A stretch of 64,000 nt of DNA from Escherichia phage vB_EcoM_PTE-Eco05 (PQ306573.1), one strand, 5' to 3'; positions 1,805 through 58,392 are shown, counted from the stretch's first letter. The notes: generated by a model not told the origin, from the sequence alone. Program-made: numbers and translations.

Positions 1805-2077
1805 ATGAATAAAGATATTGAAATTGTACGTGAAATTATTACGGTTGCTTCTATTTTGATTAAATTCTCGAGGGAAGATATTGTTGAAGACCGAGCAAAT
1901 TTCATCGGATTCTTGAATGAGATTGGAATTAAAAAAGATGGTCGGCAGCTAAATCAGAATTCGTTCAGAAAACTAATTACAAATTTAACCGCCGAAGAAA
2001 AGAAAACACTGATTAGTGAATTCAATGAAGGTTTTGAAAATATTTATCGCCATTTGACGATGTATTCTAACAACTAA
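1805..2077 (+). CDS. asiA: anti-sigma70 factor AsiA
   Basis: 90 aa, MNKDIEIVREIITVASILIKFSREDIVE... near-identical to T4 AsiA as recalled; converges on holin t as in T4. Confidence 0.95.
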   Translation: MNKDIEIVREIITVASILIKFSREDIVEDRANFIGFLNEIGIKKDGRQLNQNSFRKLITNLTAEEKKTLISEFNEGFENIYRHLTMYSNN

Positions 2078-2782: not shown

Positions 2783-3556
2783 TTAAATCCAGGAGCCGTA
2801 GATTGTGCCTGTAGCACCCCATGACGGTGAACTTCCGAATACTGCTCTGCCAGGAGAACCACCGCCGGATCTAGATAAGTGTTTACCCCATCCATCTCCG
2901 CCCCGACCTCCAGCATCACCGCCATTGCCTCCGCCGTATTGGGAAGTGTAACCGGCACTGCCCGGGGCGTCATAACTAGCATTACCGCCAGGCCAATTAA
3001 CGCCACCGCCGCCGAGGCCAAATGGTCTGCCGCCACCGCCACCTGCTGTAGCATTTGGCGCCCAGCTATTCTGTAATGACACTGCACCACCACCACCACC
3101 ACCTGATGCAATAACGCCATAGTTCCAAATACGAAGTCTTCCGCCGATATCATTTTGGATTACATCGCCACCATTTGTGCCTGGGTTTCCGTTTACAGTA
3201 CCGTTACCACCTCGTCCCCACATATGAACTCCACCATGAATATTCAAAGTAACATATTCATTTGGCGTATCGCCATACATAAAGAATAATGGAACATCTT
3301 TACTATATGATACTAAATTTCCAGTGATATTAAACACTATAGGTGCACTACCTGCCTCAAAACATCTATCTCGGAACCATTGACCATTGAAGTTATGGTC
3401 TGCTCCAAGTGTGTGAATTACTTCAACAGATCGACCTATCATATTACTCATCCAAAACGGAATTCCCATTCTCAATCTCTGTGCGGCACCACCCATCCAA
3501 TTTTGTCCTGTATTAACTACTGCAGACGATCCTACCCACGGTCCTGTTACTGCCAT
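2783..3556 (-). CDS. 38: long tail fibre tip adhesin gp38 (T2-type, glycine-rich motifs)
   Basis: About 257 aa with repeated glycine-rich motifs ([40 protein letters not shown]); follows gene 37; ORF-track start 3568 is TTG, ATG at 3556 has a GGAGG RBS. Confidence 0.88.
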
Positions 3557-3568
3557 ATAAACCTCCAA

Positions 3569-3580
3569 GGGCCGAAGCCC
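3569..3580 (-). other. intercistronic RNA hairpin GGGC-UUCG-GCCC (minus-strand sense) between genes 37 and 38
   Basis: Plus-strand GGGCCGAAGCCC; 4-bp GC stem with UUCG tetraloop on the late transcript, immediately upstream of the gene 38 RBS. Confidence 0.5.
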
Positions 3581-3586
3581 CTCTTA

Positions 3587-6500
3587 TTATTTTAACAATG
3601 ATTTAACTAATGCTTTAAGTTCTTCAATTTCTGATTTAAGTTCCGCAATTTCTGTAGTATGTTCATTTATTGCAGCTGTATTTAAACCAATTACACCGTT
3701 ATAGTTCAAACGAAGTAAAGCTTCGCCATCGGGGTCACCTTCAACTAATTCTGGTAAAATAGCTTGAACTTCTTGGGCTATCAAACCGGCGTTAGGTTCC
3801 CATTTCTGATTGCCTTCTTCGTCCGTTCCACGTTTCTGCATATAAGTGTAACCGTTAATTTTAGAAAGCTTCTCAGAAGCATTTTCAAATTTAACAAGGT
3901 CTTTTTTAACACGAATATCAGAACGGACATAAACATCACGGACAAACGTTGAATAACTATCATTTGCCTGAACGAGATGCCCATGAGAAACGATAGCTCT
4001 TCCAACTTCTGTCCAAAAAGCACCGGTTGAATCCCAAAGCCCAGGATGAGATTGATAGCCTGCTCCCCAGTTTGCAATATGTATACCATTGGCAACCATA
4101 TTGATTCGGCCGTCACCACCATGAACTAATCCGGTGTCATTATCACCAATAACAACACATGCGCCTGTCCATGCAGGGTCACCTCCACCAGCTGATATTC
4201 TTACTCCAGCTTTAACCATGTCAGGAACGTACATGTTTCCATTATGGTGGAATTCGAAGATAGCTTGTGGGTCGGAACCGTTTTCCTGATTACCTACACG
4301 AATAATACCTTGTGCCCAGTTATTAGGAATGCGTCGCATACCAAAATCAACACCAGATACGTATCCATCATTCGTAATAACAGATTTTCCTTTGATAATT
4401 GGATAATAACTATCATTACCGACGTAGCCAAAATCCACAAATACGGGAGCTTCCTGGCGCCATTGATTTCCCCAATCGCCGGCCTGGTGTGCGGTCCAGA
4501 CCGACCCATTTATATAAATTCGGTCCCTATTAAAATTAAAAGTGGCAGTCCCTTCCGGGTTTAAAGCAATATCACCACCATTATTAACATATATGCCTGA
4601 TCTATTTTGGAAACTATAAAACGATATGGCATTATCAGCACCACCATTACCTACATACCAGTTATCAACGCCTGCTTTTTGTCCTTTCAAATAGCCAGAT
4701 TCGGTTGCCGTGCTATTAATAACGATGGCATCAGAGTTTGCATTAAGAGTTAAGCGACCTGTCATCGTGTCGCCTTCTTTAGAAACACGGGTAGCTATTG
4801 CATCGCGAATATTTGTAGTGTCTCCTGCTGAAGTAAACGATTTCCAAATATCCGAGAAAATATTACCATTACGAGCAATAGTAGCTTCACCGCCGCCGAC
4901 CTGAACGTTATCTGGGAAGTTAACAGTACCGTCTTGATTAAAACGAGACGTATGGCCTTGTGAACCATCTTCTTTCAGATGATGAATAACGAATGTACCC
5001 GAACTAATTTCAGTACCTAAAGACCAAACAGCTTTACCATTTAAAAACTTCTGTTTAACAATAGGATAATATTTGCTTACAGCATCATCATCAATTTCCT
5101 GGAAAATAGGAGCCGCTTGAGCATATTGAATATCATAACCACCAGCGCCTGCGCCATGACCAGTAAATTTAATATAGCCGTTTGCTGCGAACGTATTGTA
5201 ACTTGATTGTAAATCTGGAATAGTAACTTTACCAGTATCTAAAGCCATACTAAACGGGCGAAGTGGACCGATATCACCATTTTTGCCTTCACCATAAGCA
5301 GTCGGAATAATATGAAGACTACCTTCTGAACGTCTAAAAATGGCTCCATAATCTGCGTTCCAAATACGAAGCGCATTCACTGCTCCAGATGAAATTTCGC
5401 CTGTTGTGTGAACTCCTCTATTTCCAGCAGTAACACCAGATGATTCAAATGAACCGTTAACGTTCATTTCTACTTCACCTGTTGTAAGTCTTTGAATATA
5501 GCTCATCCAACTAGTTGCATCAGAAATTTCCATGACGTTTTTACGATTACCTACACTAGGATTAGTAAACGTATTGCCCCACACAGAAATTGTCATATTA
5601 TCAACTGAACTAGCTCCGGTCGTGTTACCTCTAAACATCAGTGTAGAAGCATTATTTCTACCATCGATATTAACAGAACCACCAATAACGTCAATATTAC
5701 CAGGAGTAACTAACAAACCGCCGTGAGTATTAATGTTTGTGGTACCCTTGCCGCGGAAATAATGATGATAGTTACCGCCTTGATAATATCCTAAAAGAGT
5801 CTGACCATCTCCAAACGCGTTATTATCGTGATATGTCACGACAGTAGCGAGAGCATAGTTTTCAGTTGGAGGAGTAGTTAAATCGGTTCCGTTAGTAGAA
5901 TATCCAGCTACAAATTTTCTTAGGCTAGTTGTTTCGCTGGGACTAAATAAAAATGTTTTCGTTCCATTATTAACGCTAAAATAATATCCATCTTGATGCC
6001 ATTTAAATCCAGTATCATTATCGCCAAGAGAAATTGAAGCAGTCCCTAATTCAGAGTATCCTTTATTGCCACCAGGAGTACCAACAGAAATAGAATGGCC
6101 TGCTTTCAATCCACCTGACCAGGTAAACGACCAAAGATAAGTGTCTAAGCCATCTCCAGTATACCAAGTTATTCCATCATTATCTTTAACTTCATGGAAT
6201 ACACCAGCGCCTACAGCATTGCGCATAACACGGAGATGATTAATAGCAGTAGTGCTTTCAGACAATGGAACGTTGTCTGCCATAGAATAAATGTCATAAT
6301 CGCTCGTAGATTTATTATTAGTAATAACTCTATTTGTCAAAATCTGAGGAGTTGACATAGATTTCCATGCTGATACTTCAGGTGAAGTAAATAGTCCACT
6401 GCCCGAAAATGCATAGGTGCTTTCATCACCAGCGGCGTAGTCTTTAACGCGGATATTAACTACTTGCGTAGTTAATCCATCATTAGCCGGTGCATAAATA

Positions 6501-6898
6501 ATGCCACGTTCACGATCAGCCGAATCATGAAAACGAACATGTGCTGTACCTGAACTTTTTGTAATAAGTTCACCGCCTTCGGTCATAATCTGCCCAGCGG
6601 CAATAATATCACGAGTTACTCGAGCAATACCGGTTAAATTAAAATTACCTGTCTGAGTGAAGGTGCCATTTAAAGTATAATCGCCAGTTTGGTTATAATT
6701 GCCAGTATGAATAACATTCCCGTCAATACTACCACCTTTAGCAAAACCCAGATCAATAATATTTCCTTGGTCATCTTTAGTAAAAAGTACACGGTCTTTT
6801 AAGTTTATAGCCAATTCACCTTCGGCTAATACTGAAGCGGCAGGACGTGCTCCTGCAGTTTTGCTTCTTTTAAATTGTATTTGTTTTAAAGTAGCCAT
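3587..6898 (-). CDS. 37: long tail fibre distal subunit gp37 with C-terminal intramolecular chaperone domain
   Basis: 1103 aa; N-terminus MATLKQIQFKRSKTAGARPAASVLAEGELAINLKD matches T4 gp37; C-terminal ~110 aa (RSDIRVKKD...GLIAQEVQAILPELVEG...coiled coil) resembles endosialidase/S74-type intramolecular chaperone domains. Confidence 0.95.
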   Translation of the reverse strand: MATLKQIQFKRSKTAGARPAASVLAEGELAINLKDRVLFTKDDQGNIIDLGFAKGGSIDGNVIHTGNYNQTGDYTLNGTFTQTGNFNLTGIARVTRDIIAAGQIMTEGGELITKSSGTAHVRFHDSADRERGIIYAPANDGLTTQVVNIRVKDYAAGDESTYAFSGSGLFTSPEVSAWKSMSTPQILTNRVITNNKSTSDYDIYSMADNVPLSESTTAINHLRVMRNAVGAGVFHEVKDNDGITWYTGDGLDTYLWSFTWSGGLKAGHSISVGTPGGNKGYSELGTASISLGDNDTGFKWHQDGYYFSVNNGTKTFLFSPSETTSLRKFVAGYSTNGTDLTTPPTENYALATVVTYHDNNAFGDGQTLLGYYQGGNYHHYFRGKGTTNINTHGGLLVTPGNIDVIGGSVNIDGRNNASTLMFRGNTTGASSVDNMTISVWGNTFTNPSVGNRKNVMEISDATSWMSYIQRLTTGEVEMNVNGSFESSGVTAGNRGVHTTGEISSGAVNALRIWNADYGAIFRRSEGSLHIIPTAYGEGKNGDIGPLRPFSMALDTGKVTIPDLQSSYNTFAANGYIKFTGHGAGAGGYDIQYAQAAPIFQEIDDDAVSKYYPIVKQKFLNGKAVWSLGTEISSGTFVIHHLKEDGSQGHTSRFNQDGTVNFPDNVQVGGGEATIARNGNIFSDIWKSFTSAGDTTNIRDAIATRVSKEGDTMTGRLTLNANSDAIVINSTATESGYLKGQKAGVDNWYVGNGGADNAISFYSFQNRSGIYVNNGGDIALNPEGTATFNFNRDRIYINGSVWTAHQAGDWGNQWRQEAPVFVDFGYVGNDSYYPIIKGKSVITNDGYVSGVDFGMRRIPNNWAQGIIRVGNQENGSDPQAIFEFHHNGNMYVPDMVKAGVRISAGGGDPAWTGACVVIGDNDTGLVHGGDGRINMVANGIHIANWGAGYQSHPGLWDSTGAFWTEVGRAIVSHGHLVQANDSYSTFVRDVYVRSDIRVKKDLVKFENASEKLSKINGYTYMQKRGTDEEGNQKWEPNAGLIAQEVQAILPELVEGDPDGEALLRLNYNGVIGLNTAAINEHTTEIAELKSEIEELKALVKSLLK

Positions 6899-6906
6899 AA
6901 GTCCTC

Positions 6907-7563
6907 TTAATAATAGCCGAAATCTTGAACAGAATCCTTAATAACAATTTGGTCAAATCGTGGAACATGTGAGGGTTGAGATGCAGGATTCTGTGAGAAA
7001 AAGTTTGGGGCAGTTAGCGCGCCGGTCATCGTATCTCCTGAACGGAGTACACGACTGTTTGCATTAGCATTAACTGTATTTATTTGACTATCAACATAAT
7101 CTTTGCGAGTAAGGTCGTAATTATTTAAAGGTGCTAACGTTGTGGCTCTGAATTGAGATGCTTCAATAACGCCTTTAGAACTTATATTACCGGTGCGAGT
7201 ATCAATTACAACAGTTCTTTCACCTGTACCTTGAGATGATTTAAACCCAATACCATACCACGAAACAATATCCATGTTTGTTTGGTCGAATGTCGCGGCG
7301 TCAGCACCACCAGAAAAAATACCATTCGTTTGGTCATCTGCTGTTTTGACTGCAACACCTTCGTTAAAGATTACCTTTTTGAGATATGTCCCACCATTTG
7401 CTTTAGATACGAAATCGTTATCAGCCGCTTTTGGCTTGTTATATTCGGTGTATAATTTAAATGTTTTATATAGGATGTCATCGCCAGCTGGCATTAAAGG
7501 AAAATTGCCTTGATGCCATATGACGGAACCACCAACTGTACTTCCGGCTTTTAAATCGGCCAT
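6907..7563 (-). CDS. 36: long tail fibre proximal connector gp36
   Basis: Start set to ATG giving MADLKAGSTVGGSVIWHQGNFPL (T4 gp36-like, ~219 aa) with AGGAGA RBS; ORF-track start 7614 is a TTG extension. Confidence 0.9.
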   Translation of the reverse strand: MADLKAGSTVGGSVIWHQGNFPLMPAGDDILYKTFKLYTEYNKPKAADNDFVSKANGGTYLKKVIFNEGVAVKTADDQTNGIFSGGADAATFDQTNMDIVSWYGIGFKSSQGTGERTVVIDTRTGNISSKGVIEASQFRATTLAPLNNYDLTRKDYVDSQINTVNANANSRVLRSGDTMTGALTAPNFFSQNPASQPSHVPRFDQIVIKDSVQDFGYY

Positions 7564-7589: not shown

Positions 7590-7597
7590 TATTTATA
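7590..7597 (-). promoter_or_regulatory. late promoter TATAAATA for gene 36
   Basis: Plus-strand TATTTATA at 7590-7597, about 27 nt upstream of the gene 36 ATG. Confidence 0.7.
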
Positions 7598-7605
7598 CGC
7601 GAAAA

Positions 7606-7621
7606 GGAGACCAAAGTCTCC
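7606..7621 (-). terminator. stem-loop with U-run after gene 35 (minus-strand terminator)
   Basis: GGAGAC/GTCTCC 6-bp stem with 4-nt loop, followed on the minus transcript by UUUU; lies between the gene 35 stop and the gene 36 late promoter. Confidence 0.55.
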
Positions 7622-7622
7622 T

Positions 7623-8747
7623 TTATTCTGTGTACTCTTTAAATTCCTGCCCAAATACCTTACCTGTGTCGTTAGATAACTGAGTAGGCAAGTCCATTAT
7701 ATCATTACCGGTTAATGATTCATCAATGTAATTAACACGAATACCGTTTATACCAAACTCGGCGGGTTTTGCTATACTTCCGTTACATGATACTTCAGTG
7801 AAAATAACATTTCTTAGTCCACCTTGACCGACTGAGGCCGTACGGTAACAATATACTGTAAAGCCATCAGCTTCAGCTGGTATTTCAACGTATTCTTCAT
7901 ATAGCTTCCACTCCCGGGCAGTTCCATCAAAGTTTATATCTTTAGATGATATAGGAGAGCTAGATGGAGACTTAAAGAAACGAATTGAAAGTCTTGTGGT
8001 TCCTTCCTCTAATAATTCTTCATCAGCCATTAATTGAAATTTCAAATAAAGAAAATCTGTAGGCTTTAATCCATAGTTTGCGATAGGAGTAACAAGGGAT
8101 GATGTAGGCATCCTTTTTATTTCATTGTTAGTTCCTCCAACAGGAGATAAAAACGTTTCTAGAGCTTCATATGTACGTCTAGGATAGCCGGTAGCACCTA
8201 TATCAGCAATAGAGTCATATACAATATCTAATGGAGTTGCGTAATCAGAAATTGTTTTCTTATTACTGTATTTTATGTGTTCTAATGCAATAGTATTTTT
8301 ACCTGAAACATAAAACGCTGAATATGAAATATCAACAAGACTAGCAACTTCAATCGACGGTATAACTGAACTCCCAGCAGCTTTAAACCATTCAATTATT
8401 TCTGGCGGCAAATTAAATTTGTTATTAGAAATAAATGCGAAAATGAAATTATCTGCGTATGTGTTAACAAACGAAATAAATGCAGCTGAAGTTGCATTAT
8501 TTGTAGGCGCAAAATTGTATAATTTACTATCAACTATAGTTCCATTTTCCGGATTTATCACCCTAACATTTAGTCCAATACCAAAAGACTGCAACCCTAA
8601 AGGCTCATTTTGGAATAAAATATACGGATTAGTTGTTGAAAGCGGGCATGAACCCGCTATACTTAGCTTAAATCTAACTGAATTGCTTTCCGATAAAAAC
8701 GGCGTTTGGACGTATCCCTGTCCAAACCTTGCCATAAATTTTTCCAT
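7623..8747 (-). CDS. 35: long tail fibre hinge connector gp35
   Basis: 374 aa; position between 34 and 36 and size match T4 gp35; AAGAGG RBS. Confidence 0.88.
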   Translation of the reverse strand: MEKFMARFGQGYVQTPFLSESNSVRFKLSIAGSCPLSTTNPYILFQNEPLGLQSFGIGLNVRVINPENGTIVDSKLYNFAPTNNATSAAFISFVNTYADNFIFAFISNNKFNLPPEIIEWFKAAGSSVIPSIEVASLVDISYSAFYVSGKNTIALEHIKYSNKKTISDYATPLDIVYDSIADIGATGYPRRTYEALETFLSPVGGTNNEIKRMPTSSLVTPIANYGLKPTDFLYLKFQLMADEELLEEGTTRLSIRFFKSPSSSPISSKDINFDGTAREWKLYEEYVEIPAEADGFTVYCYRTASVGQGGLRNVIFTEVSCNGSIAKPAEFGINGIRVNYIDESLTGNDIMDLPTQLSNDTGKVFGQEFKEYTE

Positions 8748-8755
8748 ATAACCTC

Positions 8756-11700
8756 TTATTCAACCCATATAAATTTAACTGTTTTGTTAACCGGGTCTGG
8801 AACAATTCTCACATTTCCTAATTGTAAGAAGTCTCGAACAGTAAGGTTTCCAATAACAGCATTATCAGATGGGATAGCACCGACATCGCTAGGTGAAGGT
8901 GGGTTGCCACTATCAAATACCATTGCAAATGAAGTCCAAGCATCTTTATTTTTCTGCCAGGTACGAGTATAACGAATACTACCACCATTTGCACCTGTAG
9001 GATAACAAATCCAATCCTGATAAAGCGAATCTAAGCTATTGCCGAATTGAGTCAAAGTACCAGGATATTTAATTTCTTGGTCACGGTTACCTTTGTTATC
9101 ACGCGTCCAGTATCCAGGGAATTGGCTATATACAGCAGAATCGTTAATGTCAATAGACCAAAAACCTACAGTAGAAGCTGTTGGTTTATCGGTATAAACA
9201 GTGGCAGTTTGAACGCCGTTAGAAATAATTCTGTTATTTACAGTTAACCCACCGGTAGTTATTGTTGCACCACTTGTGATTTGAACACCATTGTCAAGAC
9301 GAACTAAGCCTGTGGCGTTGTTAATCGTGATCGGGCGTAAGTTATTAAACGTCCCGGTCTGGTCACCTGAGTTAGTTAATGCAATATAAGAACTGTTACC
9401 AGCGTTATAAAGCATAACACCATAGTTACCGTTAATAGCTCTGAATGCAATAGGAGAACTAGAAACAATTTCGCCTGTAGCACTAATAGGCCCGGTAAAA
9501 GTAGAAACACCTGTAACATTTAATCCATTTGTAGAAACAATACCTGTTGAATAAAGTGTTCCATTAATATTAAATGATACTTTATTATCAGCAGCGCGCT
9601 GAGAATAGAAATGGTATCCGGTTTCGTCACCCGCTTCAAATACTGTATCACGGGCACCATCTGTAGCGCTATTGCCCCATGCTCTAACAACGAAATTCTC
9701 TTTATTACTAAGAGATTGGGTTCCTTTAGTGAAAACTATTTCGGAACCGCTAGAGTCATTAAGAGTTAATCTACGAGTAACAGATGCTTCGGAACCAAAA
9801 GAAGCAGTGCTTGTAGATACTAAAGGAGCACTCAGGTTGGTCTGTTTAGTAAGACTTAAAGAACCATTAACCGTCTGGTCGATGTCTCTACGGATGAACT
9901 GAAGAGAATCTAGACCATCTAACAAATTACTATCAGCTGCTTTAGCTTTCAACGGTAAGTAGTTAGCAAGTACACGGTTTAATTCATATGGAGAAATAGC
10001 ATAACTATTTTTCTCATAAAGATTCAAATCCTGGGTATTACCTTGAGTATCGTCACCGACAAATGTAATAGAACCAGATGAAGTTTTAACGAATCCACGA
10101 ATTGCCGTAGTAGCAGTCCATGATGGTTCTGATTGAACAATCCATTTTAAATTCTTAGGTGATACAGCAGTATTAGCAGAAGTTCCCGTTACAGTTTCAT
10201 CTTGAGTAGCAACCTTAATCACGCCTTCAGACGTTTCAGTGGACTTAGTCCCTAAAAGCTTTTTAGGAGTAATAAGAACATCATCTAAAGTTCCTGCATT
10301 AGATTCTGCCTGGGTCGCTACGCGAAGTGTACCGCGTTGTGTTTCATTTGCTTTAGAAATATCAAGAGTATAATGGTTCCACAAGGTTCCTTCTTCAATA
10401 AGTCCGGAATCAGAATTAACACTGGTACGGTCAGAAGAATCAAAATGAGTTTTAATTTTCAGTGGAGACGAGATACGAGTATCGTCAGTTCCAGTATCAA
10501 ATTCAACTTGCGTAGCAATTTCGGCTATGCCAGATAATCCTTCCGTAGCTTTCCTATCATTTAACGTCTTAGGCGTTACTGCTCTAGTATAATCAGTTCC
10601 AGTGTTAGTTTCTGCTTGCGTAGCAATTTCAATTAAACCAATACGACCATCAGTAGAAGTTTTCTTATGCAGAGTTTCAGGGGTCACTACAGCATTAGCC
10701 CAACCGGCTTGTGATTCGCCAGCGATAACTTCACTTTCAATAGCAAGAATTACTGCACCCTGCTGAGTAGGGGTAGCTTTATACTGGTCAAGAGCCTTTG
10801 GAGAAATAGTTAAATTATCTACGGCTTTGTTATAAACGTTAGTCCCAGCATTACCGCGAATAGTAGCAGCTGTAGTACCAGTCGTAGATGTGTATTTTAC
10901 AATACCAGATAAAACTTCAGAACCTTGACGGGCATCCAATTTCTTAGGAGTAATAATAGTGGTATCATCTGTGCCAGCATTAGTTTCAGCCTGAGTTGCA
11001 ACTTCAGCAACACCTCTACGGGTTTCAGTTGCTGTACGTTCATTCAATTTCTTAGGAGAAATAATCAAATCATCCTGGAATGCAAAATCGGTATTCTGGT
11101 TAACTTGTGCAGTTGTTGCAATACGAGCAATACCACGACGAGTTTCAGTTGCTGTACGATTTGCTAATGTTTCTGGAGTAATAGCCAGTTCTTTACCAGG
11201 AGCATTTTCTAAATCAACATTTGCTTGCGCTTGAGAAGCAAGAGCAATAACACCTAAACGAGCTCGAGTTGTATTGCTCGATGCATCGACTCGTTCGACG
11301 GTTACAGTGTTTTGTTGAACTACCCAATATTTTGTTTCAGATGAATAATCTTCTATATAAGCTAACTCAAGTACAGGTACATACGAAGTATCACCATTAA
11401 ATTCCAGCTCACTAACAGAAACCCATTGTGCATCAGGTGGATACTCCGAACGTTTTGGGAACTGTAATAAAGAAATACTGCTAGCAATTGTATCGCCTTC
11501 AGCAGCTTTAATTTTTACAGTTTGCCCTTTACGCATGTAATTCAACGATATTTTAACAGTATCGCCAGACAAAATATCTGTAGGCAAAGTAAGATTTACC
11601 GTCGAGATTGTATTATTATCAGTTCCAAAAACAAGAACTTCTTCATTAGGGTGTAAATCAGTATCATTACGAACTATACGTAAACGAGATTTCTGGTCAC

Positions 11701-12589
11701 CTTCCCAAACTCTCCACAAACTAGATGCTGCATCAAAAATAAAAAGAGCATCAGCAAAATTACGTCCTTCTGCTACATGAACACCGGCTTCTCGTATAGA
11801 AGTTGTATCATCGTAAGTTTTGACAATTGTGTGATATAATGGGTTTAATTTGTCTAAATCCACTAAATTAATAATATCGCCATTATTAGCATTACGAGGC
11901 AATGTAATATTAATAGGAGCGGCTGATGTAAAACGTCGAATGATAAAATCATTAGGTTGCGCTTGATATGGCGTAGCAGGAGTTACTGTGACTGCATTAC
12001 GTTCGTAATCAGAAACATACATTTGCCATAGGCGGTTGCTAAAAATGAAGACCATTTTAGATTTTGGGTGCGTCATTAAAACTGAACGAACCTGTTGTCC
12101 TCTAAAGTTTACAATACTTTGAGCCGCTGCAGTAATTTGAACTTTTACATAGCCTACTCTACCGCCAATATCAGACAAAATAACTGTATCGCCATCTAAA
12201 GGATTTTGAGGCAAAGTGAAATTAATATCAGTGCCAGCTGAAGTATCAACCGCAATAGAGTTACCTACTGATAATTGGAAATCTCCGCCTTGAACTGTAA
12301 TCCATTCTGCATCAGCACGAGTTGCCTTCCATTTAGCCAAAGAGAAAGGGCCTGCCGGAGCTGGAATATCGCTTAAAGCTTGATAAAAACGATTATTATA
12401 AAGAACAATAAAATCTTTTGTATACGCGCGCGTCTCGTCATAATTCTGTACGGTGTTTTCTTGCACCAAAAAGTCAACGTTCACGCCATCGGTGCCAACT
12501 GTGCGGTCGGCAAGCGCAACGTTAACTATCTTATCACCGCCTGCGTCAAGACCATCTTCGGCCCTGAACTTACGTTTGATGTCAACCAT
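8756..12589 (-). CDS. 34: long tail fibre proximal subunit gp34
   Basis: 1277 aa; long stretches identical to T4 gp34 as recalled (FRAEDGLDAGGDKI...TVKFIWVE), internal ATETRRG repeats. Confidence 0.97.
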   Translation of the reverse strand: MVDIKRKFRAEDGLDAGGDKIVNVALADRTVGTDGVNVDFLVQENTVQNYDETRAYTKDFIVLYNNRFYQALSDIPAPAGPFSLAKWKATRADAEWITVQGGDFQLSVGNSIAVDTSAGTDINFTLPQNPLDGDTVILSDIGGRVGYVKVQITAAAQSIVNFRGQQVRSVLMTHPKSKMVFIFSNRLWQMYVSDYERNAVTVTPATPYQAQPNDFIIRRFTSAAPINITLPRNANNGDIINLVDLDKLNPLYHTIVKTYDDTTSIREAGVHVAEGRNFADALFIFDAASSLWRVWEGDQKSRLRIVRNDTDLHPNEEVLVFGTDNNTISTVNLTLPTDILSGDTVKISLNYMRKGQTVKIKAAEGDTIASSISLLQFPKRSEYPPDAQWVSVSELEFNGDTSYVPVLELAYIEDYSSETKYWVVQQNTVTVERVDASSNTTRARLGVIALASQAQANVDLENAPGKELAITPETLANRTATETRRGIARIATTAQVNQNTDFAFQDDLIISPKKLNERTATETRRGVAEVATQAETNAGTDDTTIITPKKLDARQGSEVLSGIVKYTSTTGTTAATIRGNAGTNVYNKAVDNLTISPKALDQYKATPTQQGAVILAIESEVIAGESQAGWANAVVTPETLHKKTSTDGRIGLIEIATQAETNTGTDYTRAVTPKTLNDRKATEGLSGIAEIATQVEFDTGTDDTRISSPLKIKTHFDSSDRTSVNSDSGLIEEGTLWNHYTLDISKANETQRGTLRVATQAESNAGTLDDVLITPKKLLGTKSTETSEGVIKVATQDETVTGTSANTAVSPKNLKWIVQSEPSWTATTAIRGFVKTSSGSITFVGDDTQGNTQDLNLYEKNSYAISPYELNRVLANYLPLKAKAADSNLLDGLDSLQFIRRDIDQTVNGSLSLTKQTNLSAPLVSTSTASFGSEASVTRRLTLNDSSGSEIVFTKGTQSLSNKENFVVRAWGNSATDGARDTVFEAGDETGYHFYSQRAADNKVSFNINGTLYSTGIVSTNGLNVTGVSTFTGPISATGEIVSSSPIAFRAINGNYGVMLYNAGNSSYIALTNSGDQTGTFNNLRPITINNATGLVRLDNGVQITSGATITTGGLTVNNRIISNGVQTATVYTDKPTASTVGFWSIDINDSAVYSQFPGYWTRDNKGNRDQEIKYPGTLTQFGNSLDSLYQDWICYPTGANGGSIRYTRTWQKNKDAWTSFAMVFDSGNPPSPSDVGAIPSDNAVIGNLTVRDFLQLGNVRIVPDPVNKTVKFIWVE

Positions 12590-12623: not shown

Positions 12624-12631
12624 TATTTATA
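12624..12631 (-). promoter_or_regulatory. late promoter TATAAATA for gene 34
   Basis: Plus-strand TATTTATA at 12624-12631, about 35 nt upstream of the gene 34 ATG. Confidence 0.7.
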
Positions 12632-15893: not shown

Positions 15894-15911
15894 GGGAGAC
15901 TTCGGTCTCCC
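15894..15911 (+). terminator. rho-independent terminator after gene 32 (GGGAGAC-UUCG-GUCUCCC plus U-run)
   Basis: 7-bp GC-rich stem, UUCG tetraloop, then TTTT. Confidence 0.7.
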
Positions 15912-24998: not shown

Positions 24999-25012
24999 GG
25001 GACTTCGGTCCC
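24999..25012 (+). terminator. UUCG-loop hairpin after nrdB
   Basis: GGGAC-TTCG-GTCCC directly after the nrdB stop, followed by a T-rich tract. Confidence 0.55.
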
Positions 25013-33670: not shown

Positions 33671-33675
33671 TTTTA

Positions 33676-33693
33676 GGGAGACTTCGGTCTCCC
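33676..33693 (+). terminator. rho-independent terminator (GGGAGAC-UUCG-GUCUCCC plus U-run)
   Basis: Same 18-nt hairpin as after gene 32, followed by TTTT. Confidence 0.7.
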
Positions 33694-33730
33694 TTTTGTG
33701 AGTTTAGGGCAGAAAAAGTTTAAAAAAGAT

Positions 33731-34173: not shown

Positions 34174-34189
34174 GGGAGCCGAAGCTCCC
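34174..34189 (+). other. GC-rich hairpin (GGGAGC-CGAA-GCTCCC)
   Basis: 6-bp stem with 4-nt loop between two ORFs; no U-run on the plus strand; reads as a UUCG loop on the minus strand. Confidence 0.4.
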
Positions 34190-36188: not shown

Positions 36189-36458
36189 ATGTTTGTAGTT
36201 CATGATATTACAGATGGCAAAAATACCACACGTGACTACGGTCACGTTAACATGTTCTTTCGAGACTGGCCATTGTTTCGTTCAGTAAAAGACGCAGAAA
36301 TATTTAAAGAGTGTGTTGAACAAGGGTTCATCTACATTTCAGAATACTATGTTGAAGGACTCGGTAAATGGATTACCACTTATCAGAAAACGCTGAAATC
36401 GCTTCTAGATGAAGTGGCTTATAATAGAACCGTAACCAAAATCGAGGACATCAAATGA
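36189..36458 (+). CDS. hypothetical protein (89 aa)
   Basis: ORF track; stop overlaps the ligase start. Confidence 0.5.
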   Translation: MFVVHDITDGKNTTRDYGHVNMFFRDWPLFRSVKDAEIFKECVEQGFIYISEYYVEGLGKWITTYQKTLKSLLDEVAYNRTVTKIEDIK

Positions 36459-37948: not shown

Positions 37949-38136
37949 TGAAAGCTTATTTAGAAACAGTTATTGTAGCTAAGAAGGATGGTGGAGATGT
38001 TTCCACCTCTTGCTCTCAGATTATATTAGATTTTCCTAATGAAAATTCGTATCGGGTTTTCGTAGATAACGTTAATGGGTACGAAAAAGGCCCCAATTTT
38101 GAAGTTTATCGTACTTTGCTCCCGATTGTGGATTAA
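37948..38136 (+). CDS. hypothetical small protein (62 aa)
   Basis: ORF-track entry trimmed to ATG overlapping the ligase stop (TAATG). Confidence 0.45.
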   Translation: MKAYLETVIVAKKDGGDVSTSCSQIILDFPNENSYRVFVDNVNGYEKGPNFEVYRTLLPIVD

Positions 38137-38150
38137 GAGCCTTCGGGCTC
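38137..38150 (+). terminator. rho-independent terminator (GAGCC-UUCG-GGCUC plus UUUUU)
   Basis: 5-bp stem, UUCG loop, five T residues, immediately after the ORF stop. Confidence 0.65.
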
Positions 38151-38191
38151 TTTTTGGCATAAATATAAATTATTACTAAAAGGAAAACACT

Positions 38192-49194: not shown

Positions 49195-49207
49195 TTTTAT
49201 CTCCTAA

Positions 49208-49219
49208 GGGCCGAAGCCC
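49208..49219 (-). other. intercistronic RNA hairpin GGGC-UUCG-GCCC between uvsW and uvsW.1
   Basis: Plus-strand GGGCCGAAGCCC identical to the element between genes 37 and 38; again immediately upstream of an AGGAGA RBS on the minus transcript. Confidence 0.5.
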
Positions 49220-50734
49220 TTATAAATTAATTGTTTTCATTACATAGTTAAATTTCTCATCAGCGTATCGTTGGATACGATCAATACCGTGTTTTAACAA
49301 GTAATTAAGATGAGTATACTTCTTTTTAGTATTTAATGATTTAGGTTTTACACCTGCATCGTCGATGAGATCCCAAACTGTAGCAACAGATTTAGAACCA
49401 TGCTTACGAAGCACGCGACCTACGGTTTGAAGTACGATAATTTTTGATTTAACACCATGGGCAAAAATAACATGATGAAGATTCTTGACTGAAATACCAG
49501 TAGAGAATACTCCATATGATGCAACAATAATAATGCCTTTACCATTTTCTGCCATGACTTTAAGCGCGTTACGTGTTTCAGTATCAACTTCACCTGATAC
49601 GTAATAAACTTTTTCGTATCCAAGCTCTTTAATAGCTTCAAATATTTCTTTACCGTGTGTAACGTGTTTAAACATTACAAAGGCGTTCTCGTCTTTCTTA
49701 GCCAATTTGACCGAAAGTTGAGCAATCCACTTTGTACGTCGTTTTAGTCCGGTAATAATTTTAACTTCTTCTTGGTATGTTTTACCTTTTAATTTAATGG
49801 TGAATTCGTCCGGATAACGAAGGAAAATACTATTAATCTTAAGCTCAGTTACCTGTCCGTCTTCCATTAATTTAGACGTGCTAACAGGACGGAAGATTTC
49901 GCCGAACATACCTACGTACTGCATTACATTGGCTTTTCCGTCTCTTAATGAGCCAGATAAACCGAATTTAAACATGCAATTATTTAATCCCGAGATGATT
50001 GAAGAAATACTTTTGCCTGTTGCTAAGTGGCATTCATCGTTCATCATCATACCGAACTGAGAGAACCATTCTTTAGGCTGCTTAACTACTGTTTGCCATG
50101 TGCCAACAATAATTGGAGCGTCGTTTTTAGATTTGTCTGCTTTATCAGCACCACCGCCAATTTTCTTAATCATCGAATGACTAAACAAGCGATAATCAAC
50201 AAAATCATTAGCCATCTGGGTTGTCAATGCTGTTGTAGGGACGATAATGAGAATTTTACCTTCATAATTCTCTAGATAATATCGAGCTAAAAGTGCTTGG
50301 ATTAGTGATTTACCTGCTGATGTCGGAAGGTTTAAAATTCGACGACGATTAACCAGACCTTCATATACTGCATCTTTTTGATACCAATGTGGTTCGATTT
50401 TGGCGTTGCCTGAATAAATTTCTTGTTTAGAAAGCCACGCGTCAAAATCTTCCCTGGTAAGGTCTTCGGTCTCAAAGATTTTAGGGTCAATCCATACAGA
50501 ATAACTCATATTGCTACAGAACTTTTTTATTTGTCCTACAAGTCCATATGGTAACAAACGGTTGTAATCTAAAAGTCGAATTCTACCATCCCAGTTCCCA
50601 TAGCGATATTTTGGGTTAAATTTATACCCGTCAGCTTCAAAGCTAAAAAAGTCACGAAGTTCGTAAAACGTACTTTCGTCGCATTCAATGCGCACGTGAC
50701 TAAAATCATAAAAATGTACTTTAATGTCAGTCAT
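49220..50734 (-). CDS. uvsW: UvsW ATP-dependent DNA/RNA helicase
   Basis: 504 aa; SF2 helicase motifs (LPTSAGKS Walker A, DECH box); strong similarity to T4 UvsW. Confidence 0.93.
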   Translation of the reverse strand: MTDIKVHFYDFSHVRIECDESTFYELRDFFSFEADGYKFNPKYRYGNWDGRIRLLDYNRLLPYGLVGQIKKFCSNMSYSVWIDPKIFETEDLTREDFDAWLSKQEIYSGNAKIEPHWYQKDAVYEGLVNRRRILNLPTSAGKSLIQALLARYYLENYEGKILIIVPTTALTTQMANDFVDYRLFSHSMIKKIGGGADKADKSKNDAPIIVGTWQTVVKQPKEWFSQFGMMMNDECHLATGKSISSIISGLNNCMFKFGLSGSLRDGKANVMQYVGMFGEIFRPVSTSKLMEDGQVTELKINSIFLRYPDEFTIKLKGKTYQEEVKIITGLKRRTKWIAQLSVKLAKKDENAFVMFKHVTHGKEIFEAIKELGYEKVYYVSGEVDTETRNALKVMAENGKGIIIVASYGVFSTGISVKNLHHVIFAHGVKSKIIVLQTVGRVLRKHGSKSVATVWDLIDDAGVKPKSLNTKKKYTHLNYLLKHGIDRIQRYADEKFNYVMKTINL

Positions 50735-52593: not shown

Positions 52594-52599
52594 TCGTAA

Positions 52600-52613
52600 G
52601 GGGCTTCGGCCCC
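52600..52613 (+). terminator. rho-independent terminator after hoc (GGGGC-UUCG-GCCCC plus U-rich)
   Basis: 5-bp GC stem, UUCG loop, TTTCTTCGTTTTT tail. Confidence 0.65.
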
Positions 52614-52694
52614 TTTCTTCGTTTTTAAAGCATACAAAACACAACTTGAGATTGATGTATATAATGGCACAAACCAAATAATACGGGATTGATT

Positions 52695-55941: not shown

Positions 55942-55951
55942 AACCAAAAAT

Positions 55952-55969
55952 GGGAGACCGAAGTCTCCC
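55952..55969 (-). terminator. terminator hairpin downstream of gene 23 (GGGAGAC-UUCG-GUCUCCC on the minus transcript, then U-run)
   Basis: Plus strand GGGAGACCGAAGTCTCCC, the reverse complement of the element at 15894 and 33676; minus transcript continues AUUUUUGG. Confidence 0.65.
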
Positions 55970-55993
55970 AAAATAAGATTTAATCAATTAAGA

Positions 55994-57562
55994 TTAGATG
56001 CCTTTTACATATACACGGCGGAAGTAAGCGTTCTTACCAAGGCTGTTCAGGATAGACGGCATACCTGACTGGATGCGAGCACCTGGAGCCTGCAGGGAAC
56101 TTTCAGCAAACGGGTTAACACCGATACCGTAACGAGTTTTAAAGCCCATTACCGGCTGGAAGTTCTTAGGATCGGAACCACGCAGTGGGGTAAGTGCAAC
56201 GTAAGGAGCATAGTAAATACCTGCATCCATTTCGTTAGCGCCTTTGTAACCAACGGTGAAGTAATCCTGTTTAGCATACTGGTCGATGTATACGCGGTAT
56301 TTACCACCAAGTACACCGGCAAATACAGACTTAGTAGTGTCGGTATTAAAACCAGAAGCTAGACCCTGTGCAGCGTAAGAAATACCAGTATCAACTGAAG
56401 CCAGTACGTTAACTACGTTACGGGAAGCGATAATGAAGTTACCTTCACCACGACCGGTTTGACGAGCAATTTCAACTGCTTCTTTATCAATCTGGAACAA
56501 CAGAGATTTAAAGCTTTCACCGGCCCAACGAGCACCACGGATATCAATCGGGTCCTGGAAGTCAAATACACCAGCTTTAGAACCCGGAGTCAGGGTCATA
56601 CCAGATTTACCAACCTGTGCTGAGTAGTTAATCCAATCAACAACTTCACGGTTGATTTCTAGCATAATTTCTGTAGCCAGAATACCGCTCAGTTCAGCAT
56701 CAGCATCCATACCGTGTACTGCACGGAGGTCTTGTGCTAATTCGATAGAGTAAGCAGCTTTCAGCTGGCGAGATTTAGCTTCGATAACTTGTTTATCGAT
56801 ACGGAAGCCCATTTCATTCCATGGGTTATCGGTAGAACCGTTGAAACCTTCCTGGAGTTCAGCGATAGAAGTAGCCATACCTTCAGCGATTTCTACCAGT
56901 GCACCAGCTTCCATTTGTTTCTTAACTTCTGCATCTAATTTAGCTGCATCAGTTGCACCAGAATCAAGTGTTACGACAGCAGAAGCTTGCAGATATACAG
57001 TACCAGTTTCTTGGAAGAAGTGAGTATAGATATCACCTACAACAGTAGTAGTGTCAGCAGCCAGAGCTGGGAATTTCTTAGCAGCACCCTGACCAGAGAA
57101 CATCGCGTCTGGGGCATACATCGGATGGAAAGCTTCTTTAGCGCCGGCAGCGATAGGGTCTTTACCATATACCGCACGGAGAGCAAATACCTGACCGGTC
57201 GGGCTGTTCATAGGCTGAACACCACAAATATCAAAAGCGATCAGATTAGGAATAGCACGACGAACCATACCCATAACTGCCGGCCCAATTTGGGTTACTG
57301 CACCAGAGGTTTGACCCGCTGCGATGTTCTGAGCATTATAACCATGGTCACCACCAATTTCAGCTTCGGTCAAGAAAGAACCAAATGCCTGAGCGATTTT
57401 CTCGTCTTTATATTCAGGGGATACTTCGAAATCTTTTTCCTGGTTTTCGAAGATTTTAGCGATAATAGCCTGCTTGCTATTAGCGATTTCCGGCAGGCCT
57501 TCACCTTCCAGCAGTTCTTTCCATTTGTCTACGAGCTGAGCTTTAGTTTTGATAGTAGTCAT
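55994..57562 (-). CDS. 23: major capsid protein gp23 (precursor)
   Basis: 522 aa, MTTIKTKAQLVDKWKELLEGEGLPEIANSKQAIIAKIFENQEKDF..., near-identical to T4 gp23. Confidence 0.98.
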   Translation of the reverse strand: MTTIKTKAQLVDKWKELLEGEGLPEIANSKQAIIAKIFENQEKDFEVSPEYKDEKIAQAFGSFLTEAEIGGDHGYNAQNIAAGQTSGAVTQIGPAVMGMVRRAIPNLIAFDICGVQPMNSPTGQVFALRAVYGKDPIAAGAKEAFHPMYAPDAMFSGQGAAKKFPALAADTTTVVGDIYTHFFQETGTVYLQASAVVTLDSGATDAAKLDAEVKKQMEAGALVEIAEGMATSIAELQEGFNGSTDNPWNEMGFRIDKQVIEAKSRQLKAAYSIELAQDLRAVHGMDADAELSGILATEIMLEINREVVDWINYSAQVGKSGMTLTPGSKAGVFDFQDPIDIRGARWAGESFKSLLFQIDKEAVEIARQTGRGEGNFIIASRNVVNVLASVDTGISYAAQGLASGFNTDTTKSVFAGVLGGKYRVYIDQYAKQDYFTVGYKGANEMDAGIYYAPYVALTPLRGSDPKNFQPVMGFKTRYGIGVNPFAESSLQAPGARIQSGMPSILNSLGKNAYFRRVYVKGI

Positions 57563-57579: not shown

Positions 57580-58392
57580 TTAGAAACGAGATGCGACTTT
57601 CGCATATAAACTTACATTAGAATTCTGTTCTACCTGAGTTGTGGTAGTGTCAACTGCTTCGGCAACAAAATTAAGACCGGCAGCGTCATTGTCAACTGTA
57701 TTTATACTTTCGGTAATAGCGGCTTCTTCTTTAGTAGAACCTTTAACCATTTCTACAATAGCAGTTAACTTAGTACCAAATGCGTCAGAATAATCCATAC
57801 CTTCAACCAGGCCAATAACTTTTTCTTTCTGAGATTCAGTCAGGTCTTTTACGCTTTCATTAATAGCGGTTTCACGCTGAACGTAATTGATATATGCATC
57901 ACGTTTGGTAACTTCTTCGAACAAACGAGCGGTTTCTTCTTTATGTTCGGCCAGCTCTTCTTCCATTTCTGCTACAACATCTACAGATTCTTCTGGAACA
58001 ACAACGTTATGTTCAACAAACAGTTCTTTCAGACCACCAAGCATGGATTCGAACAAATCAGCTTTAATGCCTTTATCAACTGCGATTTGGTTTTCTGCGA
58101 GCCATTCTTTTGCAAGATGGTCTAGGAATTTAGAAGCTTGTTCAGCCAATTTTTTATCAGCTTTCTCTTCAGCATCTTCTTTGGCCTTTTCAACTTCTTC
58201 TTCAGCCTTTTCGGCGATGGCTTTGATATGAGATTCAGCCAGTTTGACTGCTTCCTGCTTAACGGTGGCTTCGAATACAGTGCTGAAATTAGCTTTAACG
58301 TCCGGAGACAGTTCTACTGATTCGAAAACACTATTAAGAGCAACTGAAGTCTCGATGTTCTGAGCTTCTTTCAAAAGTTGTTCTTTGATCAT
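57580..58392 (-). CDS. 22: prohead core scaffold protein gp22
   Basis: 270 aa, highly acidic/helical; matches T4 gp22. Confidence 0.93.
   Translation of the reverse strand: MIKEQLLKEAQNIETSVALNSVFESVELSPDVKANFSTVFEATVKQEAVKLAESHIKAIAEKAEEEVEKAKEDAEEKADKKLAEQASKFLDHLAKEWLAENQIAVDKGIKADLFESMLGGLKELFVEHNVVVPEESVDVVAEMEEELAEHKEETARLFEEVTKRDAYINYVQRETAINESVKDLTESQKEKVIGLVEGMDYSDAFGTKLTAIVEMVKGSTKEEAAITESINTVDNDAAGLNFVAEAVDTTTTQVEQNSNVSLYAKVASRF

Follow-up and report, generated by a model that had tools for sequence, protein, structure and literature searches.

The tips of the long tail fibres of T-even phages are formed by the distal fibre subunit gp37 and, in phages of the T2/S16 type, by a separate adhesin, gp38. 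For phages S16 and PP01, the structures of these tips and their receptor-binding loops have been described (PMC6851490, PMC12892980). In S16, a chaperone at the C-terminus of gp37 removes itself by autocleavage at S^SDRRIKK (PMC7917993), and three conserved tryptophans of gp38 fit into pockets of gp37 (PMC6851490). Likewise, gp37 of T2 and T6 undergoes C-terminal cleavage and is then capped by gp38 (Trojet et al.; PMC3157838), and this locus is classically known to exchange modules between genera (PMC3157838). Here, we analyze the corresponding genes of Escherichia phage vB_EcoM_PTE-Eco05 (PQ306573.1), which lie on the minus strand at positions 2783–6898 of a stretch of 64,000 nucleotides, referred to as the window in the following. 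An initial annotation had proposed that gp37 ends in a self-cleaving chaperone domain and that gp38 is a glycine-rich adhesin. With a probability of roughly 0.9, we conclude that the locus is a distal long-tail-fibre tip module of the T2/S16 type, belonging to an RB69-like Mosigvirus.

The interval 2783–6898 is the exact span from the stop codon of gene 38 to the start codon of gene 37, and every element that the initial annotation had observed was present at the position it gave. Gene 37 (3587..6898, minus strand) is an open reading frame (ORF) of 1103 codons plus a stop codon and encodes the distal subunit of the long tail fibre. Gene 38 (2783..3556, minus strand) encodes the fibre-tip adhesin, identified by Pfam and PDB matches, with 257 residues plus a stop codon, starting from the ATG at 3556. 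The ORF listing placed the start at a TTG at 3568, yielding a gp38 of 261 residues, which we rejected, as this codon sits within the intergenic hairpin and Shine-Dalgarno sequence described below. The flanking genes follow the T-even order 34-35-36-37-38-t-asiA. At the nucleotide level, the full-length locus shares 93.7% identity with RB69, and the remaining window is 96–98% identical to Mosigvirus genomes (PhAPEC2, SF, FL31, APCEc01, ChristianSchoenbein); judged by its sequence, the window derives from an RB69-like T-even phage, a Mosigvirus.

The assignment of gp38 as an adhesin is carried by matches to both protein families and solved structures. The protein covers the complete Pfam profile GP38 (PF05268; positions 1–218 of 218, E 6.3e-84, 281.6 bits, family cutoff 25 bits) as well as the complete profile Gp38_N (PF21721; 1–40 of 40, E 1.8e-21, 76.3 bits). 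Its residues 37–256 match the receptor-binding domain of PP01 (9V85; E 2.3e-75), and its full length matches the S16 adhesin (6F45_D; E 2.6e-50). The Gp38_N match delimits an N-terminal attachment domain (residues 1–40; 3437..3556, minus strand) with the three tryptophans Trp7, Trp20 and Trp35, which are unchanged across seven aligned adhesins (the window, T2, T6, S16, RB69, RB51 and FL31). Gene 38 is located directly downstream of a gene 37 with a Peptidase_S74 C-terminus and upstream of the holin gene t, and the same is true of RB69, RB51 and FL31. Exact copies of gp38 were found in two Logan assemblies only, both of them unannotated (SRR12795745 and SRR12795782).

The remainder of gp38 is rich in glycine, which makes up 24.9% of the whole protein and 34% of residues 110–257. 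Runs of this residue are found at 152–157 (GGGGGG), 172–176 (GGGGG), 182–185 (GGGG), 208–210 (GGG) and 231–233 (GGG), in agreement with the initial description of a protein of about 257 residues with several poly-glycine motifs. That annotation had also suggested an alignment to the gp38 proteins of T2, T6 and S16. In the alignment of the seven adhesins, the glycine motifs are in register and are separated by variable segments: invariant are GRGGNG (114–119), G126 and GG (129–130), GGGGGG (152–157), GGGGGRP (172–178), G180 and G183, G199, GNGG (210–213), G216, G219, GG (232–233) and G236. The entire region (residues 114–236; 2849..3217, minus strand) is predicted to form a polyglycine-II sandwich with receptor-binding loops. 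When mapped via the 9V85 alignment and the loop definitions of PMC12892980, the five PP01 loops correspond to residues ~120–128 (A), ~158–171 (B), ~184–188 (C), ~203–207 (D) and ~223–228 (E). The view that the variable segments between the glycine motifs are the determinants of host range, put forward in the initial annotation, is established in the literature (PMC3157838, PMC12032242, PMC12892980).

The second component of the module, gp37, bears a domain of the Peptidase_S74 family (PF13884, ‘chaperone of endosialidase’), which is matched at residues 993–1052 with an E value of 9.6e-13 and 48.7 bits, the Pfam cutoff being 22 bits. As controls, we ran T2 and S16 gp37 as well as T4 gp37 and gp38 through the same Pfam check; the S74 domain was found in T2 and S16 gp37, but not in T4 gp37, which has Collar and Phage_fiber domains instead. 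We predict an intramolecular chaperone domain that spans residues 993–1103 (3590..3922, minus strand) and is released after trimerization; with 111 residues, its length accords with the earlier estimate of about 110. Searched alone against the PDB with phmmer, these last 111 residues match S16 gp37 (6F45_A) with an E value of 3.9e-32 and align end to end with the S16 chaperone, which was the only strong match, with MYRF and 8JOV being marginal. A profile built from seven T-even gp37 C-termini reaches further and matches MYRF (7DC3; E 2.5e-10), the tail fibre 8JOV (3.7e-7) and GA-1 (3GUD; 1.5e-3). In 3GUD, the released neck-appendage chaperone of GA-1, residue 1 is a serine and is aligned with S993. 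Neither phmmer nor the seven-sequence profile gave a direct match to the endoNF or T5 pb1 chains in the PDB, and the link to these two proteins therefore runs via the Pfam family and 3GUD. Consequently, the classification of the gp37 C-terminus as an endosialidase-type intramolecular chaperone is borne out by the PF13884 match, the profile matches to 3GUD and 7DC3 and the S16 alignment, while its proposed likeness to the chaperones of endosialidase and T5 fibres holds at the level of the Pfam family and of 3GUD, but not as a direct match with the sequences of T5 pb1 or endoNF. Taken together, the matches of gp37 and gp38 are beyond chance, with E values of 6e-84, 2e-21 and 1e-12 in Pfam and of 1e-43 to 2e-75 against solved structures.

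At the start of this domain, we find a predicted autoproteolysis motif, S993-D-I-R-V-K998 (3905..3922, minus strand), with a serine as the first domain residue and a lysine five residues on (S-D-x-R-x-K signature). Both the S74 domain and the SDxRxK motif are present. The serine, aspartate, arginine and lysine are invariant in the seven phages T2, T6, S16, RB69, RB51, FL31 and that of the window; moreover, in the alignment this motif falls on S^SDRRIKK, the cleavage site of S16, and the Pfam match begins precisely at residue 993. From this alignment, a cut between R992 and S993 is predicted, which would release 111 residues. The C-terminal segment ‘..R SDIRVKKD..’ thereby starts at Ser993 and includes GLIAQEVQAILPELVEG. 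It ends in a predicted amphipathic helix (residues ~1073–1103; 3590..3682, minus strand), read from the heptads in the sequence and from a low-confidence AlphaFold2 model, with I, L or V at the a and d positions (IAELKSE IEELKAL VKSLLK). This helix is probably the trimeric coiled coil of the chaperone. In the model, a single-sequence prediction for residues 900–1103 as a monomer, one long helix extends over residues 1056–1102, with a predicted local distance difference test score (pLDDT) of 85–89 at its end and a mean pLDDT of 44.

Upstream of the chaperone, gp37 residues 911–992 (3923..4168, minus strand) represent the distal tip, a predicted beta-helical docking platform for gp38, assigned by alignment with the gp37 fragment of 6F45. 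Together with the chaperone (residues 911–1103), this tip aligns with 6F45_A, the S16 gp37 fragment that was crystallized with gp38, at an E value of 1.1e-43. In the fibre body, a gp34-like trimerization or shaft domain (residues 418–561; 5216..5647, minus strand) is supported by Pfam Gp34_trimer (E 1.5e-7) and by the T4 gp34 structures 4UXE and 5NXF (~E 1e-12); the Pfam scan of gp37 places the gp34-like trimerization domain at 450–550 and adds a weak gp37_trimer match. The homology of gp37 to its T4 counterpart is confined to residues 1–640, with 34% identity. The T4-type tip, i.e. the Collar domain and HxH fibre repeats, both found in T4 gp37, is absent from the window gp37 in the Pfam scan.

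These features suggest the following sequence of events. For the T4-type late promoter, a pattern search located the consensus TATAAATA upstream of gene 36 (7590..7597, minus strand) and upstream of genes t and 34 (2757–2764 and 12624–12631, minus strand); across the window it occurs 19 times, compared to 8.2 occurrences expected by chance, and no copy was found between genes 37 and 38. As the consensus precedes genes t, 36 and 34 but does not separate 37 from 38, genes 36, 37 and 38 are probably co-transcribed, in a late transcript starting at the 7590–7597 promoter. By homology, gp37 would then form a trimeric beta-helical fibre, assisted by its own chaperone (993–1103). After trimer formation, as judged from S16, T2 and T6, Ser993 would act as the nucleophile and Lys998 as the base of a cut between Arg992 and Ser993 that exposes the end of the fibre. 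A single gp38 monomer would then cap the trimer, its three-helix attachment domain placing Trp7, Trp20 and Trp35 in three equivalent pockets of gp37. Finally, the glycine motifs would pack as a polyglycine-II sandwich and project the hypervariable loops onto an outer-membrane receptor, most probably OmpF. The hairpin between the two genes would belong to a generic intercistronic class; it lies 5′ of a canonical ribosome-binding site for gene 38.

The closest relatives of both proteins allow the origin of the locus to be traced. The gp38 sequence is 97.7% identical to those of RB51, RB68 and FL31 and 95.7% identical to that of RB69, whereas gp37 is 95.4% identical to its equally long homolog in RB69, 91.2% to that in FL31 and 87.3% to that in RB51, with all four gp37 proteins comprising 1103 residues. 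The exact gp37 sequence was not found in a collection of 15 billion proteins. In a sliding-window comparison, the flanks (t, gene 36, gene 35 and the 5′ end of gene 37) are 99–100% identical to RB69 and FL31. By contrast, 3835–4134, encoding the gp37 tip and the cleavage site, is 100% identical to FL31 at the nucleotide level but just 75–77% identical to RB69, while 4435–4800 shows ~90% identity, and this to RB69 only. RB51, which is a Tequatrovirus, matches the interval 3161–3609 with 99% identity; this interval covers the spacer, half of gene 38 (the 5′ half) and the final part of the chaperone. Outside it, the flanking genes of RB51, including gene t, are just ~65–77% identical to those of the window. 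By these comparisons, the locus is a recombination mosaic in which the best-matching donor changes, from FL31 for the gp37 tip to RB51 for the gp38 5′ half and chaperone and to RB69 for the middle of gp37. The comparison of 3161–3609 with RB51 is a clean case of a fibre-tip cassette swapped between genera. Although the neighbouring tip region has been swapped, the chaperone domain still shows 98% conservation relative to RB69, RB51 and FL31, which argues for purifying selection on it.

The same relatives provide a prediction of the receptor. RB69 and RB51 need OmpF as well as FhuA and a full lipopolysaccharide (LPS) core (PMC3157838), FL31 shows lower plating on ompF and tolC mutants (PMC12032242), and OmpF is the target of the Mosigvirus isolate Bas47 (PMC8594841). 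For the phage ChristianSchoenbein, we looked for a described receptor and obtained no result. Since the near-identical adhesins of RB69, RB51 and FL31 use OmpF, we predict OmpF, with reliance on the core of the LPS, as the probable receptor of the phage studied here.

The certainty of this prediction is reduced by the substitutions that are particular to this gp38 allele. Compared with RB69, RB51 and FL31 alike, gp38 has the changes G200S, F207Y, N225K and A234S, which are located in or beside loops D and E and are surrounded by 18–28 synonymous codons per comparison. A closer donor for the 3′ third of gp38 was not found in the phage collection, the best match being FL31 with 96.3%. Tyr207 aligns with PP01 Tyr209 in loop D, and Lys225 with Ala228, the PP01 residue at the loop E tip. 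In PP01, infectivity is abolished by Y209A, Y209S and Y209L, and the tip of loop E requires a hydrophobic residue for OmpC binding (PMC12892980). By this alignment, the four substitutions could fine-tune receptor recognition. A stronger proposal, namely that they retarget or broaden gp38 away from the specificity for OmpF that RB69, RB51 and FL31 show and thus constitute a natural host-range switch by a few residues, seems to us unlikely.

Some observations weigh against the overall account. G200S, F207Y, N225K and A234S could shift the receptor preference, and because of this the assignment of OmpF is only moderately certain; in addition, the OmpF dependence of FL31 is a one-log effect (PMC12032242). 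The AlphaFold2 model of the gp37 C-terminus is, with its mean pLDDT, too poor to lend structural support. Lastly, the cleavage, the location of gp38 in the virion and the receptor are all deduced by homology. As far as the sequence can tell, nothing in it contradicts the explanation of the locus as a T2/S16-type tip module.

The junction of genes 37 and 38 contains, as the initial annotation had pointed out, a hairpin. It is a C(UUCG)G tetraloop hairpin with a 6-bp stem (AGGGGC-UUCG-GCCCUU; 3567..3582, minus strand; sequence and fold), which starts 5 nt past the stop codon of gene 37 and borders immediately on GGAGG (3562..3566, minus strand), the Shine-Dalgarno sequence of gene 38, read from the sequence 5 nt before the ATG. 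The spacer between the stop codon of gene 37 and this Shine-Dalgarno sequence measures 19 nt. The equivalent hairpins are GGGGC-UUCG-GCCCC in RB69, RB51 and FL31, GAGGGC-UUCG-GCCCUC in T2 and GAGGGGC-UUCG-GCCCUUC in T4, with deviating loops in T6 (GGGGC-UUU-GCCCC) and S16 (AGAGCC-UACG-GGCUCU); thus, all eight phages compared have, at the junction, a hairpin that is rich in G+C and whose loop is UNCG or UUU. In the window, one G-U pair replaces a G-C pair of RB69, RB51 and FL31. RNAalifold detected one compensatory pair in the 37–38 spacers, a count that is understated relative to a reading by eye, owing to a misalignment of the S16 and T6 stems by MAFFT. The segment 3562–3586 (minus strand) also has a near-identical hairpin in T4 (7618–7652), even though the 3′ end of gene 37 and gene 38 are unrelated there.

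It is conceivable, though improbable, that this hairpin is a specific regulator of gene 38, either as part of a split ribosome-binding site or as a terminator that sets a 3:1 ratio of gp37 to gp38. Its retention in all eight phages would fit such a role, as these include T4, with unrelated flanking coding sequences, and S16, with another stem and a UACG loop. In T4 gene 38, moreover, the Shine-Dalgarno sequence and the AUG stand on either side of the hairpin, which shortens their spacing from 22 nt to 5 nt (PMC3014915). In the window and the other adhesin-type phages, however, the hairpin is followed on its 3′ side by a normally spaced Shine-Dalgarno sequence, and the window has just a weak AAGAG on the 5′ side; therefore, the split-site mechanism of T4 does not apply, and we rejected a split ribosome-binding site, as the GGAGG is found 3′ of the hairpin, with 5 nt separating it from the ATG. 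A transcription terminator was likewise rejected, since no U-tract follows the hairpin and a terminator scan made no call. The local fold z-score is just −1.46, and near-identical hairpins follow many other genes of the window: we count 11 C(UNCG)G hairpins, including the one at the 37–38 junction, compared to 3.0 ± 1.8 in shuffled sequences, and most are found just after stop codons. The others, with stems of 4–8 bp, are located at 15894–15911, 24999–25012, 33675–33694, 36230–36247, 38135–38152 and 52598–52615 on the plus strand and at 34174–34189, 49205–49222, 55951–55970 and 58299–58310 on the minus strand; one follows the major capsid gene at 55994. It was in T4 mRNA that C(UUCG)G hairpins first came to attention (PMC4371310), and C(UNCG)G hairpins are a genome-wide punctuation feature of T4-type phages. 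We thus place the junction hairpin in the generic C(UUCG)G intercistronic class, with a barrier at mRNA 3′ ends, a folding nucleus or a modulation of gp38 translation as candidate roles. A dedicated role in the 3:1 ratio of gp37 to gp38 is a weaker possibility than a retargeting by the four substitutions in gp38.

A further alternative concerns the fate of the gp37 C-terminus. The S74-like domain might be a degenerate remnant that stays uncleaved on the mature fibre, with gp38 docking elsewhere or not at all, and it is true that the Pfam match spans just the first 58 positions of the domain and that cleavage in this phage is predicted by homology. We nevertheless regard this as very unlikely: the catalytic Ser, Asp, Arg and Lys are strictly conserved, the full 111-residue domain aligns with the S16 chaperone, the domain has been preserved at 98% identity next to a swapped tip, and the docking of S16 gp38 needs the end that is exposed by cleavage (PMC7917993).

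Least credible of all, and all but negligible in our estimate, is the notion that gp38 is a T4-type assembly chaperone that is absent from virions, leaving receptor binding to gp37: it has in its favour only the wording of annotations (RB69, ECP52, UPEC01, JS10 and phiC120) and a gene position shared with T4 gene 38, whereas BLASTP finds no similarity to T4 gp38 (E 0.86), the Pfam scan finds no GP38 family match (PF05268) in T4 gp38 and neither this family nor Peptidase_S74 in T4 gp37 and gp38, the window gp38 matches crystallized adhesins over its full length, the window gp37 is without the T4 Collar and HxH needle tip and its homology to T4 ends near residue 640, and the RB69 record's own note names gp38 of the T2 subfamily as an adhesin. 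Gene 38 mutants of T6 are reported to lose adsorption with their fibre morphology intact (PMC3157838). The assignment of gp38 as a T2/S16-type adhesin rather than a T4-type chaperone, as made in the initial annotation, is thus upheld by Pfam, PDB and alignment. In GenBank, many entries continue to label this protein ‘assembly chaperone’ or ‘distal long tail fiber assembly catalyst’, among them those of RB69, ECP52, UPEC01, JS10, phiC120, Shf125875 and CAU_ECP01. The ‘assembly catalyst’ naming is a mislabel, carried over from the unrelated gene 38 of T4.

The tip module is flanked by asiA (1805–2077, plus strand), the holin gene t (2078–2737 or 2749, minus strand; Phage_holin_T, E 5.6e-89), gene 36 (6907–7563, minus strand; Phage_T4_gp36), gene 35 for the hinge protein gp35 (7623–8747, minus strand) and gene 34 (8756–12589, minus strand). 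For gene t, the listed ORF start at ATG 2749 appears too far upstream, and the ATG at 2737, preceded by GGGAGG, is likelier; the long form is given in the GenBank record of RB69 and the shorter form in that of FL31. Similarly, the listed start of gene 36 at TTG 7614 is too far upstream compared with the ATG at 7563. In gp35 (7623–8747, minus strand), residues 58–131 match the Pfam domain ILEI (FAM3/PANDER-like) above cutoff (E 6.5e-7), a domain name that one would not expect for the hinge of a fibre; as the match is also seen in T4 and T2 gp35, it is a feature of the family. The sole G+C bump in the window (0.44 compared to ~0.37) lies at 55994–57562 on the minus strand and coincides with the gene of the major capsid protein (gene 23). 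Scans of the entire 64 kb for tRNA genes and Rfam families found neither.

The module as such is already known: for its family, crystal structures have been solved, the cleavage site defined, the receptor loops mapped and receptors established, and its identity to described alleles is 95–98%. The value of the present analysis is therefore practical rather than conceptual, in that it predicts a receptor, probably OmpF together with the LPS core, and marks the loops that are of use for host-range engineering of phages for therapy or typing. Furthermore, the locus illustrates that the fibre-tip cassette moves between genera, with 99% identity to the Tequatrovirus RB51 between flanks that are ~70% identical to RB51, and the four loop substitutions amount to a small natural experiment on receptor specificity. 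No field-wide question hinges on this locus.

Among the known systems, RB69, RB51/RB68 and FL31, OmpF-dependent phages of the genera Mosigvirus and Tequatrovirus, are the closest: they share the gene order, the protein lengths of 1103 and 257 residues and the hairpin and spacer, and they differ from the window in the four gp38 substitutions, in the switching of donors and in one G-U pair of the hairpin. The (gp37)3-gp38 complex of S16 (6F45; Dunne et al. 2018) is also close, with a gp38 that is ~50% identical over its full length and has the three tryptophans and the glycine motifs in register, and with a gp37 whose tip and chaperone align (E 1e-43) and display the same SDxRxK motif. In contrast, its hypervariable loops, its host and its receptor (Salmonella OmpC) are different, its gp37 comprises 749 residues, and the residue before the cleavage serine is a serine in S16 but an arginine in the window. 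Among solved structures, that of PP01 gp38 (9V85), a protein recognizing OmpC of E. coli O157, offers the best template for residues 37–256; it has the same beta-helix, polyglycine-II sandwich and five-loop layout, but differs in the sequences of loops B to E. In the window gp38, Lys225 stands where loop E of PP01 needs a hydrophobic residue, which argues for a receptor surface different from that of PP01.

T4 shares the gene order, the N-terminal 640 residues of gp37 (34% identity) and a near-identical C(UUCG)G hairpin, but its gp37 ends in a Collar domain and an HxH needle without S74, its gp38 is unrelated, and its hairpin separates the Shine-Dalgarno sequence from the AUG (PMC3014915), whereas that of the window lies 5′ of the Shine-Dalgarno sequence. 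Finally, the Peptidase_S74 systems outside the T-even phages are related at the family level only. K1F endoNF, GA-1 gp12, T5 pb1 and MYRF share with the window gp37 the Pfam family, the spacing of five between Ser and Lys, the C-terminal place on a trimeric beta-helical fibre and the C-terminal helix, which in the window gp37 is a predicted one; in the system described here, however, cleavage is predicted to expose a docking site for a separate adhesin rather than a receptor-binding tip.

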